DNA of 64,000 nt, taken from assembly GCA_023381615.1 (NCBI GenBank), contig JAMCQL010000035.1:5979-69978 (forward strand). Reading direction: 5' to 3'. Of this stretch, positions 4,362-64,000 are shown piece by piece. The notes under the pieces were generated by a model. That model worked only from the letters and a program-made list of their open reading frames with translations, was not told the origin of the DNA and did no database searches. The translations under genes and the position numbers were made by a program. This stretch comes from Bacteroidota bacterium (GTDB lineage Bacteria; Bacteroidota; Ignavibacteria; Kryptoniales; JAKASW01). Every line of letters begins with the position of its first letter. Within the stretch, counting starts at the first letter, position 1.

Positions 4362-5738
4362 TTATACCTGATTCCGGTAGCCCGGCTTCAACTGGCTGAC
4401 TATGGCTGTGGCTGTGCAGCGAACATCTTCATCGTAATCTTCTGAGAGTTTTTCGAGCTGCTGAATAAAAAGTTGGGGTCCGATTCTCGCCGCTAAGTCG
4501 AGCGCGAAAATCTTGACCGGAGATTCGGGATCGTCAAGCGCTGTCTTGACTAACGCTGCGGCGCAATGCGATCCAATATTACTGCAGGCGTTAAGTACGG
4601 TGACTCTTGCGTCTACATCTAATTGGAGAAAATTCTTCGAAATGAATACCGCTGCTTCTTCCATTACCTTTGAATCGGCAAACCCAGGGCTGTTCTCGGT
4701 GCAATTCTGGATCATCGAAAGAGTCATCTTAACCAGAGCCGCCGCATTTGCTCTTTCGTTATCGAATTTGAGAATGAGTGGAAGCACTTCCTCGGCTCGG
4801 TCTTTCAAGATTGAGAATATTGCATTATCAACCGACTCCGTTTTGCCTACATGTGCGATGAGCGCTTCGAGCACATTTTCGTTGATGAAATATCTCAGAC
4901 CCCTGACAGCGGCGCGGACATATGATGTGTCTGCGTCGTCGAGCATCTCAAGTAAATGTATTTTTAGATCGCTCGGGAGACTGCCGGGGTAATCGGTGGA
5001 TTCTAAAAGTTTTACAACGGAGTGAAGCAAAACCGGTTTTGCAAGATCGGAAATCGAGTTGAGTTTTTGCAGTATAATATTCAGCAGCCCGCTGTCTTTC
5101 CGTGATGCGAGCGCCTCGGCGGCGGCAAGCTGTACGACGGGGTCATCGTCGGCGAGAGCTTTCTCCAAAAATTGCAGCTCGACCTTCTGCGGAAACTTCG
5201 CGACCGCGTTGACCACGTTCGGTTTGGCATATTCAACCTTATCGTAGAGCGCCAGGATATGGTCAGTATATTTTTCAGCGTGGAGAGCCCCGAGCGCGTC
5301 AATCGCCGCGCAGACGACATTTGGATCGGAATCGGAAAGATGCGCCGCTATTCTTTTCAGAGCCGCAGGAGTCGCGGTGAGTTGGGCTAAAATATCGATT
5401 GCAAATTTTCGCACGTCTTTGTCAGCCGAATCGACGTAGGGAAGAAGGGCGTTAACAGCAGCGCCGCCCATCCGCACGAGCGCGTCTCCCGCAAGGTTCC
5501 GCACCGTGATGTTCCTGCTTAAAATGTGAACGGCGGTGAGAGAGGCGGCTTTGTCATTCGAACAAAATACGAGCAAACGGGAAGCCGCATCGCGCACCCC
5601 CCCGTCCATGTCTGTCAGCAAGTAAGCCGCTGCTTCCAACACGCGGTCGTCGCAGGAAAAATCAAAAAGAATTTCCAGAGCGTTTCTTCGCTCGGATGCG
5701 TCGGTGGTATGAAGCTGTTCTAAAAGTTGTTCGATCAT
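4362..5738 (-). CDS. HEAT/armadillo-repeat protein
   Basis: Repeated ~30-aa units of the type D..VR..A...L (DGGVRDAASRLL, DKDVRKFAIDIL, DPNVVCAAIDAL, DDPVVQLAAAEAL, DEDVRCTATAIV). Confidence 0.7.
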   Translation of the reverse strand: MIEQLLEQLHTTDASERRNALEILFDFSCDDRVLEAAAYLLTDMDGGVRDAASRLLVFCSNDKAASLTAVHILSRNITVRNLAGDALVRMGGAAVNALLPYVDSADKDVRKFAIDILAQLTATPAALKRIAAHLSDSDPNVVCAAIDALGALHAEKYTDHILALYDKVEYAKPNVVNAVAKFPQKVELQFLEKALADDDPVVQLAAAEALASRKDSGLLNIILQKLNSISDLAKPVLLHSVVKLLESTDYPGSLPSDLKIHLLEMLDDADTSYVRAAVRGLRYFINENVLEALIAHVGKTESVDNAIFSILKDRAEEVLPLILKFDNERANAAALVKMTLSMIQNCTENSPGFADSKVMEEAAVFISKNFLQLDVDARVTVLNACSNIGSHCAAALVKTALDDPESPVKIFALDLAARIGPQLFIQQLEKLSEDYDEDVRCTATAIVSQLKPGYRNQV

Positions 5739-58801: not shown

Positions 58802-59485
58802 ATGAGAATGAATCAATCAGACGACCACAGCCTTCAAAGACCAGATGATCTTAAGGTGAGTGAATGGCGCAAGACGGCCGCCTTGAAAAGACGCGCATCT
58901 TCACGCAGGGCGATATTGAAAGCCGCACGCGAAATATTCACCGAGGCGGACTACGAGTCGGTTACCGTGGACGAGATCGCCCGTAAAGCTAAGGTAGGCC
59001 CTGCTACCATCTACAATCATTTTGGAACAAAGGCCGCTTTGATAGCCCACCTGTTTGAAGAACCTATGAGAGAATTGGAGAAGCATGTTCTAAGCGATAT
59101 AGACGCAGACCTTACTTTGGATGAGGCTGTTCATCGACACTTCCTCCGATTATCCGGGACGATGTCACCGAACAGGAAGTTGGTAATTGGATTGTGGAAG
59201 GCGATAAATGAGACTGGTCTCTCAACGAAACAATCTAACACCGCGGAAGACCCACGAAATATAGTTCCACTTCCTCGCCCTTTGACGACACTCCTGCAGT
59301 CGTTCACGATGAAGCATGACTTGAAGCTAAACCTTGACCTTGCTGGTGCAGCGGCAATGGTGACGAACGCTTTCCTCATCCGCATTTTGCGCAACGACGA
59401 CCCACAGGCAGCGGCTAAAGAAACGGCAGATCTCCTCCTGTACGGAGTTTGCGGCAGGGCTACAAAAGTTGTACATGTCCCGTGA
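58802..59485 (+). CDS. TetR-family transcriptional regulator
   Basis: N-terminal HTH RRAILKAAREIFTEADYESVTVDEIARKAKVGPATIYNHFGTKAALI. Confidence 0.85.
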   Translation: MRMNQSDDHSLQRPDDLKVSEWRKTAALKRRASSRRAILKAAREIFTEADYESVTVDEIARKAKVGPATIYNHFGTKAALIAHLFEEPMRELEKHVLSDIDADLTLDEAVHRHFLRLSGTMSPNRKLVIGLWKAINETGLSTKQSNTAEDPRNIVPLPRPLTTLLQSFTMKHDLKLNLDLAGAAAMVTNAFLIRILRNDDPQAAAKETADLLLYGVCGRATKVVHVP

Positions 59486-59520
59486 CGGGACACCACGACA
59501 GATGAAAATGTGGCGTGAGG

Positions 59521-59588
59521 CAGGTGACCGTCACTTCTATGTCAGATTGTCAGTGGATTGCAATGTTTACGCAAGTGACGGTCACCTG
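59521..59588. repeat. Perfect 16-bp inverted repeat (CAGGTGACCGTCACTT / AAGTGACGGTCACCTG) with a 36-nt spacer; each arm contains the palindrome GTGACnGTCAC
   Basis: Read directly: 59521-59536 is the exact reverse complement of 59573-59588. A third GTGACGG copy overlaps the TetR stop codon (59481-59487). Confidence 0.8.
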
Positions 59589-59624
59589 AACGTTTAGGTA
59601 TCTCCGGGAGGCGTGTATCGTCTC

Positions 59625-59876
59625 TCGGAGGTACAAAAAGGAATGTCGGAGTGTCCTTCTTGACCCGCCGAGATTCAAGCGGGTACCTCGGAGAGTCCTC
59701 TTTGATTCCCGGAGGTTCAGAAAGGTATCAAAAAGAGTCTTCTTTGATACTCAGAGATTCAAAGAGGTATGTCGGAGAGTCTCCTTTGACTCTTGGATAC
59801 TCAAAGAGGTATCTCAGAGTGTCCTCTTTGACTCTCGAAGAGTCAACGAGGGGGGTCGAGGGGCTTAGATTCGCTC
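59625..59876. repeat. Six tandem 42-bp units, each an imperfect hairpin (TCAAAGAGG...CCTCTTTGA), with TC(G/A)GAG recurring every 21 bp
   Basis: Units start at 59625, 59667, 59709, 59751, 59793 and 59835. Consensus is TCGGAG-aTTCAAAGAGGTATg-TCGGAG-aGTCCTCTTTGActc. The last unit is degenerate. Confidence 0.85.
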
Positions 59877-60284
59877 AAAAAGGGCATATAGTGATTTTGG
59901 TGAGATTTACACGGTTTTTCGGTCCTCGCGCTCGGCTTGCTAAGCCGCAGGTTGTCCTGGCAAGGTCGGGATCCTTCGAAGCGTCAAACATATCCCAGCT
60001 TGTGGCGAGGTTGAACAAGATGGGTTGGGTTTTTCCCGGGGGCAGGATGCGACGCGGTTGCACTTGAGAAGTGAAGAAATAACTTTCGGAGAAAAATGGG
60101 CGGCGTCCGGAAAGGAGAAAATGAAGTTATGTCGTATGATATTTCATTTCGGGAGGATGAACACCGTGATGCATGAAGCAGACCGCGAAACTGTTGACAT
60201 TATCCTGAGACAAGTTTAAATTCCTGCAAGATGACAAAGGGCGGAATGAGATCATCCGTAGGATCCTATGGATCGGAGGGAGAC

Positions 60285-60872
60285 ATGAGTGAGAGGTCAG
60301 GAAAGCTGCTCGATGTTCTACAACAGGAATTGAGATTGAGAAATTACAGTCCGAAGACTATCAAGGCATACAAGAGTTGCGTGCGGACTTTTATCCGATG
60401 GATAGCGCCCCGGCATCCTCGTGATCTTGGGGATTACGAAATAAGGGACGTGTTTACGGAAATGCTCGACTCCTATCAACGGTCTCCTGCCGGACTCAAC
60501 CAATTGATCAATGCACTTCGTTTTCTGTATGTTGAACTATATCAAAGGCCAATGAGATTAGGGACATTTCAACGACCGAGGGCTGAGAAGAAACTCCCTG
60601 TGATACTAAGTGAAGAAGAAGTGATCCGTTTACTGGAAGTAATAAAAAACGTCAAACATAAAACAATCCTTATGCTGATCTACTCGGGCGGTTTGCGAGT
60701 GGGTGAGGCTGTTCGCATCAAGATCGCAGATATTGACAGCGACAGAATGCTCATTCACATTCATGAAGGGAAAGGAAAGAAGGATCGATATACCCTTATA
60801 ACTGGCTTGAAGGAACTCCGTAAAGGAGGTAGTGAAAGGGAAGTGTTTAAAAGAAGTGGAGGTGGAGGATGA
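60285..60872 (+). pseudogene. C-terminally truncated IntI-like (integron-integrase-type) tyrosine recombinase
   Basis: N-terminal SAM-like domain LRLRNYSPKTIKAYKSCVRTFIRW, first catalytic Arg in YSGGLRVGEA and beta-hairpin Lys in GKGKKDRYTL. After that the frame degenerates and stops. The H-x-x-R, His/Trp and Tyr catalytic residues are absent from all frames downstream. Confidence 0.6.
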
Positions 60873-60915
60873 GAGAGGTTCTTGAAAGCTTAGCGGAGAT
60901 CCACTCGACCACGCC

Positions 60916-61055
60916 ACATAACAGATGGAACAAAGACGCTCAATTATTGAATATGTGGAATTCGCTTCATGGCGTTTGGCAATATAGAAGGAGAAGACTT
61001 AGAGGTAAGTTCCATGATGCCAAACGCCTCGACTTTGTTCCATCATACGTTATGC
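60916..61055 (+). other. attC-like recombination site 1
   Basis: R'' ACATAAC (60916-60922) and R' GTTATGC (61049-61055). Inner arms AGATGGAACAAAG / CTTTGTTCCATCAT. Internal stem GGCGTTTGGC / GCCAAACGCC. Conserved core TCGCTTCATGGCG. Confidence 0.65.
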
Positions 61056-61129
61056 GAAAGCTGGGCGTGAGGTCTGACTGTTTATTGTTCACCTTACGTT
61101 GCTGTCGATAAGGAGAAAGGGCAATTGAA

Positions 61130-61717
61130 ATGAGCACAAATCCAACATCCGCAGAGTCAATTTCAAGGAGGCAAGGGACAAAGTCTCTCAACATAGCAAG
61201 TCCCCACCCAATACCTTCAAAGCTGTTTTCAAACTGTTATAGTCTAGTCCAAGTGACTCACGCGAAGTTCGGCCTTCTGGCACTTGACTCAAGGCTCGCA
61301 ACCAAAGAGAGTTTGGTGGCAATTGCCCTAATGGAAAGAACTAGAGAGGCCATGGTTAACGCTGGCGCTGAGTATAAGCTCAGGATTATACTTGTATTTG
61401 CTGATATTGCTGTTATCGTCACTGCTTTTGTTTTCAGTTGGTGGATAGTGTTGCTGCTCCCCATCTTGCTCGTGACACAAAGAGGGACTAAGGTCAATGA
61501 ACTCAATCATAGATTCTACGCTTCTGCGTCGCTCCTATCTCTAGAAGTGCTCGCCAATGATTTTGCTGGTTGGGGTACTGCCTATCCTGAAGAACGAGCT
61601 CGAGCAGTTGCAATTCTCGGTGGTGAGCCTATCCCCCCAACGACTTGGCTAGACCTGTATTTAGCACGTCGGGACCAAGTGCCACCCTCCGAACAGAAGA
61701 AGAGCTTTGGTCCATAG
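61130..61717 (+). CDS. Cassette A ORF1: hypothetical protein with a central hydrophobic hairpin
   Basis: An AAGGAG is upstream. The TM stretch is LRIILVFADIAVIVTAFVFSWWIVLLLPILLV. I recognise no family. Its 3' end overlaps the next reading frame at a C6 tract. Confidence 0.5.
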   Translation: MSTNPTSAESISRRQGTKSLNIASPHPIPSKLFSNCYSLVQVTHAKFGLLALDSRLATKESLVAIALMERTREAMVNAGAEYKLRIILVFADIAVIVTAFVFSWWIVLLLPILLVTQRGTKVNELNHRFYASASLLSLEVLANDFAGWGTAYPEERARAVAILGGEPIPPTTWLDLYLARRDQVPPSEQKKSFGP

Positions 61718-61752
61718 ACGATTCTCAACCCTACAATGCCTGGTGTGACGAC

Positions 61753-62352
61753 ATGGACATTCACGACTATATTTTGGCTACCATTCCAGCTGAAATCGAC
61801 GATCAAGATAATTTCATTACCATAGCAAATTATGAAGGAATGCTGGCGGCTAAAGACAAGATTGCGATTGCCCAGATGATTTACCATCGCTTTCATGGAC
61901 GTTACGTAAAGCCATTTTTGTTTGAGAATGAAGAGTACAGGAAACGTTATAAGAGCGGTTTTGCGATGATGGCATCCGCTTGTTTCCTCATAGAGTCGTT
62001 AGAATCCTTCTATCACGGTTGGGAACACACACGAAATCGCGGGGAAGAAGCTTTTGAGAAGTTCTTCAATAGAGAATTCGCTTTCAAAGGCGTTCCCCCC
62101 AAGGACTTCTATAAAAATATTCGTTGTGGTATTTTACATCAGGCGGAGACAACAGGCGGGTTCAGAATCCTAAGGAAGGGTGTTCTCTTCGACCCAGAGA
62201 ACAGGATAGTCAATGCTGAAAAATTCCTGGAAGCACTTGAGGAGTCGCTGAGGGCATATAGGCAGAAGTTGTTGGAGTCTGAATGGGACGATAAGATTTG
62301 GGACAATCTGAGGGTAAAGATGCGATATATAATAGAGCATTGTCGTGGATAG
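61753..62352 (+). CDS. Cassette A ORF2: hypothetical soluble protein with an R-x4-H motif (possible HEPN-like)
   Basis: The open frame runs from 61627 (TTG at 61645, first ATG at 61753). The predicted helical protein carries NIRCGILHQAE at aa 122-132 counted from the ATG. Confidence 0.5.
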   Translation: MDIHDYILATIPAEIDDQDNFITIANYEGMLAAKDKIAIAQMIYHRFHGRYVKPFLFENEEYRKRYKSGFAMMASACFLIESLESFYHGWEHTRNRGEEAFEKFFNREFAFKGVPPKDFYKNIRCGILHQAETTGGFRILRKGVLFDPENRIVNAEKFLEALEESLRAYRQKLLESEWDDKIWDNLRVKMRYIIEHCRG

Positions 62353-62369
62353 TGTTACGCCCAGCCAGC

Positions 62370-62489
62370 GCATAACACGCCGGACAAAGACGCTCGTCAT
62401 TTGTATATATCGAAATCGCTTCATGGCGCGCTCAAACAGTACCCCAGCAAAGGATGCGCGCCACGACTTTGTCCGGCGGGACGTTATGC
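62370..62489 (+). other. attC-like recombination site 2
   Basis: R'' GCATAAC (62370-62376) and R' GTTATGC (62483-62489). Inner arms CGCCGGACAAAG / CTTTGTCCGGCG with extra unpaired bases on the right arm. Internal stem TGGCGCGC / GCGCGCCA. Core TCGCTTCATGGCG. Confidence 0.7.
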
Positions 62490-62516
62490 GAAATGTGCTA
62501 CTAAGGAGATTAGCGA

Positions 62517-63077
62517 ATGGCCAACTACGGTGAAGAATTAGGATATTGGTACCTGAGGCTTAATGGATTCTTTCCGATCACAAACTTCGTTTTTCATTCA
62601 CTAAGCAGTGAAACCCGCAAAGCTCGTTATAACGCAGACGCTGACTTATTAGCGATTCGACCGCCTAATGTTTCTGAGGTATTAATGGAGGAAACACTGA
62701 AATGGGACGACAAAATAATATCCGACCATGACCAGTCTAAGTTTGTGTTTGTTTACTGCGAAGTAAAAACTGGAGAATACGATGCATCTAAGTTGTTTGC
62801 AGAAGAAAGGATCCAGTACGCCAAGAAAAGATTCGGGCTATCTGCAGATTATAGTAGCGTCGAGCGCGTTTTCAAGACGATCCTGATCGCAAATGAAGAG
62901 AAGCCCAACAACTTGAATCGATTTAAGTTTATATCTGTGGACCATATCATTGAATTTATTCGAAGTAGATTCCAAGATTATGACGAAGTAAAGTATCCAT
63001 CAAGAATGTTTTTCGATTCGTCATTAATACAGTTCTTAATTCATGAAGCAAGGAAAAAGCGTCGGAGCCGTGATTGA
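62517..63077 (+). CDS. Cassette B ORF1: PD-(D/E)xK nuclease-fold protein (YraN/restriction-endonuclease-like core)
   Basis: AAGGAG lies 8 nt upstream. The ordered motifs are GEELGYWYLRLNGF, DADLLAI and VFVYCEVKTG (E ... D ... E-x-K). Confidence 0.55.
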   Translation: MANYGEELGYWYLRLNGFFPITNFVFHSLSSETRKARYNADADLLAIRPPNVSEVLMEETLKWDDKIISDHDQSKFVFVYCEVKTGEYDASKLFAEERIQYAKKRFGLSADYSSVERVFKTILIANEEKPNNLNRFKFISVDHIIEFIRSRFQDYDEVKYPSRMFFDSSLIQFLIHEARKKRRSRD

Positions 63078-63125
63078 TGATGGACACATAATGCAATGAC
63101 TAACTCTGATTAAGGATGTTATAGC

Positions 63126-63713
63126 ATGTTTAGCTTGTTCAAAAGGAGAATCAAAATCGATGAGTTGGCGTCATATCTAATTGAACTTAATGTTTTCTCC
63201 AAAAAGCACGAAGAATTACTTCGTGCTTCACTTGGGGACGACACTCAACTTGATCGAAAACGTGTCTTAGAGGAAATGCAGTGGCTTAGTGCTTTCTCTG
63301 TTGATTTTTTTACGTGGTGGATACTCGGCGAGACGGATCGGACGAGGGCTGTACTCGACTCGTTTTACTCCAAACTGAAACCAGTAGTTTACGGAAGAGG
63401 CTGTAGTCCCACTCCAGACCGAACTTGGGTATTGGGGCACACGTGGTTGCCAACAAATGAGAAATTTGAAGCTCGGGCAGGGGTGGGAACAGACCCGTAC
63501 GAAAACCTAAAAGAGAGATTCGCCCTTTATACTGAAGCACTAAGAACAGGCAAACCTCATTCTCAAGAGATAAATCACTTTCAGGTAGGATTCACATTTG
63601 CAAAGCTGTGTGGGACGATTGATATACTGGCTGTCCAACTGGGTCAAAATCTTCTATTGACAAATCTCAAACAGCTTAAGTGGCTATTCAACACCTTCAA
63701 GATAGTACGTTAG
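63126..63713 (+). CDS. Cassette B ORF2: hypothetical 195-aa protein
   Basis: AAGGA lies 9 nt upstream. It starts 48 nt after ORF1 with no attC between them. I recognise no family. Confidence 0.5.
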   Translation: MFSLFKRRIKIDELASYLIELNVFSKKHEELLRASLGDDTQLDRKRVLEEMQWLSAFSVDFFTWWILGETDRTRAVLDSFYSKLKPVVYGRGCSPTPDRTWVLGHTWLPTNEKFEARAGVGTDPYENLKERFALYTEALRTGKPHSQEINHFQVGFTFAKLCGTIDILAVQLGQNLLLTNLKQLKWLFNTFKIVR

Positions 63714-63746
63714 GAAAGACTACTAGATCAATGTGTAGCACACTTC

Positions 63747-63862
63747 GCATAACAACGAGAACCATGACGCTCGATTATTCTATACTATCGATCTCGCTTC
63801 ATGCCGCGCACATAGGAGGCTGCAAGGAGCGCGCCACGACTTTGTTCCATCATACGTTAGCC
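63747..63862 (+). other. attC-like recombination site 3 (arms poorly complementary)
   Basis: R'' GCATAAC (63747-63753) and R' GTTAGCC (63856-63862). Core TCGCTTCATGCCG. The right arm GACTTTGTTCCATCATACGTTA is identical to that of site 1, but the left arm AACGAGAACCATG does not pair with it. Confidence 0.5.
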
Positions 63863-63907
63863 GCAAGCACGCAACCACGATATTCTAAACGTTGAAGGAG
63901 TAAAATT

Positions 63908-64000
63908 ATGCAGACCATTTCTATTATCAATTACAAGGGTGGAGTAGGCAAGACAACGATAAGCGCGAACCTTGCTGCCGAACTTGCCTTTCGTGGTAAG
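63908..64000 (+). CDS. Cassette C: ParA/MinD-type ATPase, N-terminal fragment (runs off the window)
   Basis: AAGGAG lies 7 nt upstream. MQTISIINYKGGVGKTTISANLAAELAFRGK contains the deviant Walker A KGGVGKT. Confidence 0.7.
   Translation, partial: MQTISIINYKGGVGKTTISANLAAELAFRGK

Follow-up and report, generated by a model that had tools for sequence, protein, structure and literature searches.

The stretch analysed here is a window of 64,000 nucleotides (nt) of contig JAMCQL010000035.1 from an uncultured Bacteroidota bacterium, and the subject of this work is a two-gene integron cassette near its right end, referred to as cassette B, in particular the predicted nuclease encoded by ORF1, the first of its two open reading frames (ORFs). 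The parts of the cassette are as follows.

62484-63856, forward strand: cassette B, 1373 bp, two ORFs; crossovers directly after the first G of GTTATGC and of GTTAGCC
62483-62501, forward strand: 5' end of cassette B, an inverted repeat of 19 nt, 95% complementary to the R'' flank at 63735-63753
62517-63077, forward strand: ORF1, ATG start, 186 amino acids (aa); predicted nuclease of the PD-(D/E)xK fold from an unannotated family
63078-63125, forward strand: spacer between ORF1 and ORF2, 48 nt, with AAGGA ahead of the ORF2 start; too short for an attC site
63126-63713, forward strand: ORF2, ATG start, 195 aa; all-helical protein of a sparse family

The segment 62484-63856 is a bona fide integron gene cassette, and the span given to it in an initial annotation, made from the letters of the DNA alone, equals the integron crossover points. 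The bounding R' boxes start at 62483 (GTTATGC, which differs from the consensus GTTRRRY at one position) and at 63856 (GTTAGCC), each at the 3' end of an attC-like repeat, and the R'' boxes GCATAAC at 62368-62374 and 63747-63753 conform to RYYYAAC. The complementarity between 62483-62501 and 63735-63753, the latter ending in GCATAAC, is the R'/R'' relation expected for a cassette. The attC sites and crossovers also substantiate the earlier statement that ORF1 lies on a mobile cassette, and the coordinates of both ORFs, the 48-nt gap and the separate Shine-Dalgarno sequence of ORF2 (AAGGA upstream of its ATG) had been read correctly. Considering their homologues, their conserved residues and mean values of 88-89 in the predicted local distance difference test (pLDDT) of their models, ORF1 and ORF2 are real genes and not chance ORFs. 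Cassette B occurs with zero differences in contigs of the same organism (loci L001-L006 of those fetched for this study), its sequence being identical in four other contigs.

Homologues of ORF1 number 408 at E ≤ 0.01, all of them 'hypothetical' proteins of about 190 aa, and those listed carry no Pfam domain, one longer protein excepted. The motifs GEELGYWYL, DADLLAI and VFVYCEVKTG, to which the initial annotation had drawn attention, are present and the residues D41, D43, E82 and K84 are correctly numbered. In an alignment of 56 sequences E6, D43, E82 and K84 are invariant. Conservation was also counted over 86 distinct ORF1 relatives from genome and metagenome loci, with identities down to about 25%, as given below.

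E6: kept in 85/86 relatives
H27: kept in 86/86 relatives
D41: kept in 82/86 relatives
D43: kept in 85/86 relatives
R48: kept in 84/86 relatives
E54: kept in 85/86 relatives
E82: kept in 78/86 relatives, plus 3 with D and 5 with Q
K84: kept in 84/86 relatives
R151: kept in 80/86 relatives
K159: kept in 77/86 relatives

The AlphaFold2 model of ORF1, built on the 56-sequence alignment (pLDDT 89.3, predicted template modelling score (pTM) 0.87), begins with a helix (residues 4-15), followed by three strands (19-29, 38-48 and 76-84), a helix (96-105) and a strand (117-125), and after residue 125 by one more strand and three helices. This order fits the alpha-beta-beta-beta-alpha-beta core, with E6 on the helix 4-15, D43 on the strand 38-48 and E82 and K84 on the strand 76-84, so that the conserved residues are predicted to stand at places typical of the superfamily. 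When the model was compared with the Protein Data Bank (PDB) using Foldseek, most of the top 25 matches were PD-(D/E)xK nucleases, all of them weak (best E 5.9e-3, probability 0.99 and template modelling (TM) scores of 0.31/0.50; TM 0.3-0.5 overall). The names among them include AF1548, R2 endonuclease, MspJI, BspD6I, SPARDA, Hjc, Cap4, Card1, Cas4 and McrC, and the best match itself, 3fov, is a protein of unknown function. The conserved E...D...ExK set, the order of the elements in the model and the Foldseek matches agree with the nuclease-like character first proposed from the motifs, and sequence and model support the assignment of ORF1 to the PD-(D/E)xK fold and its call as a predicted nuclease.

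Two architectural details of the initial annotation fared differently. An insertion is indeed found between strands 2 and 3, comprising residues 49-75 (27 aa, where about 35 had been claimed) and carrying the invariant E54 and a conserved D64. The extra C-terminal domain of about 90 aa has to be reduced to about 50 aa (residues 137-186), since the helix 96-105 and the strand 117-125 belong to the canonical core. Membership in the YraN or Holliday-junction resolvase families, to which a resemblance had been seen, is not supported, as no Pfam or NCBIfam model matches, at E ≤ 1, ORF1 or any of the 56 relatives, the latter scanned singly. ORF1 itself found no match in Pfam, NCBIfam, PADLOC (PADLOC-DB v2, E ≤ 1) or PHROGs, and when the PDB sequences were searched with a profile of that family, only chance matches came up. 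Matches to CARD (E 0.033) and DUF5662 (E 0.29) in the library scans of ORF1 and ORF2 were dismissed as noise.

A variant of the gene is seen at locus L007 (2874-3420), where ORF1 is identical for the first 411 nt and then, from about window position 62928, gives way to unrelated sequence up to the contig end, with a product of 161 aa. The foreign sequence is absent from the window and from every other locus examined, and the case represents either a chimera of the assembly or an insertion by which ORF1 is disrupted in some members of the population.

The initial annotation had regarded ORF1 and ORF2 as a candidate two-gene defence or toxin-immunity unit, and had named beforehand a lack of co-occurrence in other genomes as an outcome that would refute it. 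The pairing was examined by profile searches of six-frame translations of all fetched loci, with flanks of 3-6 kb. None of the foreign loci with an ORF1 relative contained a relative of ORF2 (0/91), and none of the loci with an ORF2 relative, eight in number and representing four distinct contexts, contained a relative of ORF1 (0/8). Both families occur together solely in contigs of the window's own organism. Since the families are never neighbours elsewhere, an obligate two-gene system is not supported, and the result is evidence against an obligate two-gene defence or toxin-antitoxin system.

The proposal had further relied on the premise that a nuclease carried on a cassette normally needs a partner, which is not supported in view of ORF1 relatives that form cassettes of their own. 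Among relatives in long contigs the closest is the homologue P0002 (59% identity), which in loci L096-L099 lies between GTTAGGC (4966) and an attC site at 5563-5656, whose R'' flank (GCACTTCGCCTAAC) is complementary to the cassette 5' end and whose folding z-score is -3.55. This cassette of 683 bp holds one gene, and its attC begins a few bases past the stop codon. Both the 33-nt leader and the R'' flank of this single-gene cassette can be aligned with their counterparts in cassette B, and the two cassettes therefore have homologous ends; by comparison, cassette B possesses an extra 636-bp segment with ORF2 between ORF1 and attC. Three more probable single-gene cassettes with ORF1 relatives were found (L070, L076 and L081), their short attC sites having folding z-scores that are non-significant.

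A two-gene cassette with an ORF1 relative was observed in a Portibacter contig (L019, 1729-2981), where the second gene is translationally coupled and encodes a protein of 155 aa. By eye this protein resembles the GIY-YIG type (ILYIGTT...R); a Pfam scan gave no match.

When one genome per species was scanned, 80 ORF1-family loci were obtained, from hosts such as Methanoperedens, Archaeoglobus, Bathyarchaeia, Paenibacillus, Bacillus, Longimicrobium, Pirellulales, Flavobacterium, Cupriavidus, Deinococcus and many others. The family, with more than 400 proteins or clusters of about 190 aa, is thus spread over bacteria and archaea in a patchy and non-vertical manner. Neither 72,556 plasmid records nor 50,697 phage records contained a match to ORF1, and it was found in just 2 of 2.9 million viral contigs; the plasmid and phage records held no match to ORF2 either. 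Three of the closest genome-encoded relatives of this bacterial protein (L008-L010, 51-59% identity) are from Candidatus Methanoperedens, which are archaea, and they point to gene transfer across domains.

Clustering of the neighbours of ORF1 relatives revealed no universal partner, and no conserved downstream partner was found. Among the neighbours recognised with Pfam, HsdM recurs at 8 loci, proteins like PglX, PglZ and BrxC of the bacteriophage exclusion (BREX) systems at 3 loci, and an AAA_13 ATPase of 860-880 aa at 4 loci (three full-length and one a fragment), while MmeI-like enzymes, McrB, HEPN proteins of the LA2681 type and HsdS also recur. The commonest domains of 150 immediate neighbours are those of AAA_21/SMC_N/AAA_13/AAA_15 ATPases, DEAD/ResIII helicases, Mrr_cat, Methylase_S, Eco57I and PIN, with AbiJ and McrB as single cases, and PADLOC calls comprise PglX, Type IIG enzymes, ZorD, specificity subunits and the candidate system PDC-S06. 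Some relatives are placed between hsdM and hsdS/hsdR, or amid BREX genes, and the closest ones (54-59% identity) adjoin Mrr or a methylase/HD-CE/ORC-Cdc6-like set, or stand alone. The tightly coupled downstream genes all differ (a helicase, DUF6994, GmrSD-HNH, electron transfer flavoprotein (ETF), DUF5655 and unknowns), and between organisms such partners show no kinship, either among themselves or with ORF2. Known defence genes recurrently adjoin ORF1 relatives, namely restriction-modification (R-M), BREX, AAA_13, McrB, Mrr, GmrSD, HEPN, AbiJ and ZorD genes. From this genomic context a role of ORF1 in defence is plausible.

One recurrent arrangement deserves separate mention. In four unrelated genomes (L037, L038, L039 and L041) the AAA_13 ATPase gene stops 14 nt ahead of the ORF1 relative; the ATPase of L038 is the fragment, and at least one of the pairs lies beside hsdM. 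Three immediate neighbours in the set scanned with PADLOC match the candidate PDC-S06 and are probably these AAA_13 ATPases. The ATPase and the ORF1-family nuclease could constitute a genuine two-gene system.

ORF2 had been described as having no recognisable family, and it has indeed no significant match in Pfam, NCBIfam, PADLOC (E ≤ 1) or PHROGs, and no antitoxin-like DNA-binding domain in Pfam. A word-indexed search recovered only the protein itself; an exhaustive phmmer search of 1.84 billion representatives detected 30 distant relatives (E 1.5e-12 to 8e-4), and a repeated search with their profile gave 10 proteins only. The relatives align over the full length, with an N-terminus of the MFxxFKKR type and nearly invariant F57, D60 and Y135. 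The AlphaFold2 model (pLDDT 88.3) shows a bundle of helices that short strands at the N and C terminus close off, for which Foldseek found no credible match (best E 0.16 in PDB and 0.45 in BFVD). One relative, in a Verrucomicrobiota metagenome-assembled genome, follows RNase HII at a distance of 14 nt and precedes a pseudouridine synthase, and others are found near response regulators or near an integrase/DUF3987 element. A kinship between ORF2 and ORF1 was rejected on profile-profile comparison (hhalign probability 0.1).

Cassette B is part of an array, the remaining elements of which in the window are listed below; dG denotes the folding free energy.

60231-60872, forward strand: integron integrase gene, truncated to its N-terminal half and oriented like the cassettes
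60914-61058, forward strand: attC0, before cassette A; R' box GTTATGC at 61049-61055; bottom-strand hairpin with dG -32.2 kcal/mol, z -7.6
61050-62483, forward strand: cassette A, two ORFs (61130-61717 and 61753-62352), bounded by attC0 and attC1
62366-62491, forward strand: attC1, of cassette A; R' box GTTATGC at 62483-62489, with the cassette B crossover; dG -34.7 kcal/mol, z -5.45
63741-63864, forward strand: attC2, of cassette B; R'' box GCATAAC at 63747-63753, R' box GTTAGCC at 63856-63862; apparently chimeric

The repeats at 60914-61058, 62366-62491 and 63741-63864 are related, about 125-145 nt each, and all end in a GTTA(T/G)(G/C)C box. The bottom strands of attC0 and attC1 fold into an R-stem, a 3-nt bulge and an L-stem, and none of 200 shuffled sequences (0/200) folds equally well. 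The bottom strand of attC2 forms no attC hairpin (dG -17.6 kcal/mol, z -0.53), and its L'' box (ACGAGAACCATG) is not complementary to its L' box (CTTTGTTCCATC). The 5' half of attC2 is unique and the 3' half (CGACTTTGTTCCATCATACGTTA) shares 89% identity with the corresponding half of attC0, a make-up that suggests recombination between attC sites. As the L boxes are unpaired and the hairpin fold is missing, cassette B, a genuine cassette by origin, is yet probably no longer excisable. The ends of cassette A are complementary as well (61049-61068 versus 62357-62376, 85% over 20 nt).

The integrase ORF matches TIGR02249 at positions 1-166 of 315 (E 3e-37; 128.6 bits, the cut-off being 265), and Phage_int_SAM_4 and the initial part of Phage_integrase are matched as well. 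It is cut after about residue 190 and points toward the cassettes, not away from them, and attC0 begins about 40 nt past its premature stop. On account of this truncation, the orientation and the position of attC0 behind the stop codon, the integron platform (60231-60872 and 60869-61111) looks decayed or rearranged.

The array consists of five cassettes, occupying the last 4 kb of the window and its continuation, and two genes are present in each of the first four at least; from contigs of the same organism it is seen to run past the window end and then into chromosomal genes. The cassette next to cassette B (L001 4264-5593, first gene starting at window position 63908) encodes a ParA/MinD-like ATPase and an ORF of 138 aa. 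It is followed by one (L001 5794-7421) with a complete Type II R-M pair, an N6_N4 methylase and a protein with a REase_II match (E 1.8e-58), while the main ORF of the last cassette has 196 aa. The ORFs of cassette A gave no significant family matches in scans of Pfam, NCBIfam, PADLOC and PHROGs. The first of them (61130-61717, 195 aa) has a hydrophobic stretch at about residues 85-115 and may be a membrane protein; its kinship with ORF2, considered in view of the same length and a 29-nt DNA repeat, was rejected (BLASTP E 0.077).

Further repeats were noticed around the array. A direct repeat of about 120 nt, holding an internal inverted repeat (GGTGACCGTCAC...GTGACGGTCACC), is found at 59465-59587 and again at L001 8441-8553, which corresponds to about 68085-68197 in window numbering and lies beyond the window. 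The two copies flank the entire island of tandem repeats, truncated integrase and five cassettes, and may be the borders of an inserted or rearranged segment. The tandem repeats at 59624-59845, just upstream of the truncated integrase gene, are several imperfect 42-nt units with nested inverted repeats. Promoter and terminator scans yielded sites no more numerous than in shuffled sequence.

Considering these results together, we regard ORF1 as an autonomous defence-type nuclease module and ORF2 as its passenger, a reading to which we would assign a probability of about 0.6. E6 of helix 1, D41/D43 of strand 2 and E82-x-K84 of strand 3 would form a metal-dependent site for phosphodiester cleavage. 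Two features set the family apart, namely the insertion with its invariant E54 and a C-terminal helical part of basic character (R151, K159, R163), the latter probably contacting nucleic acid. The family appears to move as an independent unit, in single-gene integron cassettes and as inserts in defence islands, at sites next to or inside Type I R-M, BREX, AAA_13-ATPase, McrB, Mrr and GmrSD loci, and because of this independent movement its likeliest role is that of a self-sufficient or promiscuously associated defence-type nuclease, whereas a toxin reliant on a dedicated antidote is the less likely role. ORF2 most likely arrived as a passenger between ORF1 and attC, either by gene gain or by cassette fusion. 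The latter, as a sub-case in which a cassette with ORF1 and a cassette with ORF2 were joined, the intervening attC was lost and the genes are independent, seems very improbable in its simple form. ORF1 relatives do exist as single-gene cassettes, and attC sites have been rearranged in the array, as the chimeric attC2 with its attC0-like 3' half illustrates. However, a simple fusion would have left the attC of the ORF2 cassette, whereas the retained R'' flank at 63735-63753 belongs to the ORF1 side, being complementary to the 5' end there and homologous to that of the single-gene ORF1 cassette; moreover, the 48-nt spacer holds no attC remnant, giving no convincing alignment to attC sites.

Several observations weigh against an autonomous ORF1 with a passenger. 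The structural matches of ORF1 are weak (best E 6e-3, TM 0.3-0.5), the enrichment of defence genes near its relatives was judged from counts and not against a formal background, and the ORF2-family contexts inspected are only four distinct ones. The GC content at third codon positions (GC3) is 0.42 in ORF1 and 0.43 in ORF2, compared with 0.54 ± 0.02 in the host, and equal values below that of the host fit a joint acquisition; being equal, they are uninformative as a means of separating the origins of the two genes. Of the five cassettes of the array at least four carry two genes, and in one case at least, that of the R-M cassette, the pair is a functional unit, so that position alone favours a functional link. 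Lastly, ORF1 relatives have many tightly coupled neighbours, and ORF2 could be one of many interchangeable partners.

These points lead to the alternative of a lineage-specific functional pair, of the toxin-immunity or sensor-effector kind, in which ORF2, as one among such interchangeable partners, would restrain, target or sense for ORF1. Both genes lie on one strand of a single cassette, 48 nt apart, ORF2 having its own ribosome-binding site, and they are equal in a GC3 that is foreign to the host; the neighbouring cassettes are two-gene too, one with a true R-M pair. ORF1 relatives frequently show translational coupling to a downstream gene that varies (the Portibacter cassette has two genes as well), and a subset of them is reproducibly 14 nt behind an AAA_13 ATPase. 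Nevertheless we consider a pair unlikely, as the families do not co-occur in 91 + 8 loci, the ORF2 family resides beside housekeeping or unrelated genes (e.g. RNase HII and pseudouridine synthase), the closest ORF1 relatives are solo genes, including the one in a single-gene cassette with homologous ends, and neither protein is matched by a PADLOC model. An intermediate scenario, that the ORF1 family is an unrecognised and widespread stand-alone defence nuclease, which would travel as a minimal integron cassette and insert itself as a modular effector into R-M, BREX and ATPase loci, and for which ORF2 was recruited here as a new regulator or immunity partner, appears improbable. The same holds for a function of ORF1 outside defence, be it in DNA repair or recombination as a resolvase- or YraN-like nuclease, as a selfish hitch-hiker, or in the maintenance of mobile elements. 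Hjc, Cas4 and XisH-type proteins are among the fold matches, many loci have metabolic neighbours (ABC transporters, ETF, acyl-CoA dehydrogenase) and known defence models are not matched; on the other hand the distribution in bacteria and archaea is patchy and non-vertical, the gene recurs in R-M and BREX operons and in integron cassettes, the Pfam and NCBIfam resolvase and YraN models match none of 56 members, and its GC3 is atypical of the host.

Integron cassettes and defence islands are mined for compact immune genes, and a small nuclease gene in such a setting is of a kind already known. The family of ORF1 is unannotated and, as defined here, escapes current annotation libraries entirely, and for the fold of ORF2 no relative is detectable in PDB or BFVD. 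Given its size, its conserved nuclease-type active site and its habit of residing in defence islands, the ORF1 family is a reasonable candidate for functional screening. The single-gene and two-gene cassettes with homologous ends offer a natural comparison, which could show how cassettes gain genes, and a tempting reading of the locus, as a two-gene system of the defence or toxin-antitoxin type, is removed as unsupported.

Recognisable defence systems in integron cassettes have been described as small and mostly single-gene, apart from two-gene toxin-antitoxin pairs, which are the commonest such systems in chromosomal integrons; they include nuclease systems with Shedu, Mrr_cat or PD-(D/E)xK proteins, Shedu being frequent, and two-gene cassettes were counted as one system if the genes are found together wherever they occur (Darracq et al., bioRxiv 10.1101/2024.07.02.601686). 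The work of Kieffer et al. (bioRxiv 10.1101/2024.07.02.601719) is also concerned, at least in part, with small defence systems in integron cassettes. Cassette B is similar in being attC-bounded and compact, in having a nuclease-type domain and in sharing its array with an R-M cassette; in contrast, ORF1 has no PADLOC match, and instead of a Vibrio-type chromosomal integron or a mobile class 1 integron the setting is that of an uncultured bacterium whose integrase is decayed. With cassettes of type II toxin-antitoxin systems it has in common two short genes of the same orientation, but conserved pairing is absent, the closest ORF1 relatives are partnerless and ORF2 matches no antitoxin-like DNA-binding domain.

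Several ORF1 relatives are lodged in Type I R-M or BREX operons, in the manner of the AAA_13 genes of the PrrC/RloC type. PrrC and RloC are nucleases themselves, whereas the ORF1-family nuclease is a separate small protein, and ORF1 of the window has no AAA_13 neighbour. With YraN/UPF0102 and Hjc, the latter (2wiw) being among its Foldseek matches, ORF1 shares the ordered E (helix 1), D (strand 2) and ExK (strand 3) and the minimal size; it differs in the 27-residue insertion with E54, in the C-terminal extra part of about 50 aa and in a spread that is patchy and linked to mobile elements, as opposed to vertical. Unlike Shedu (SduA, DUF4263), ORF1 matches no Shedu model of PADLOC or Pfam and has a family-specific insertion and a C-terminal helical part. 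Shedu is also much larger than the 186 aa of ORF1. Nevertheless the two are alike in organisation, as ORF1, too, would be a single-gene, stand-alone PD-(D/E)xK defence nuclease that acts without a dedicated partner.

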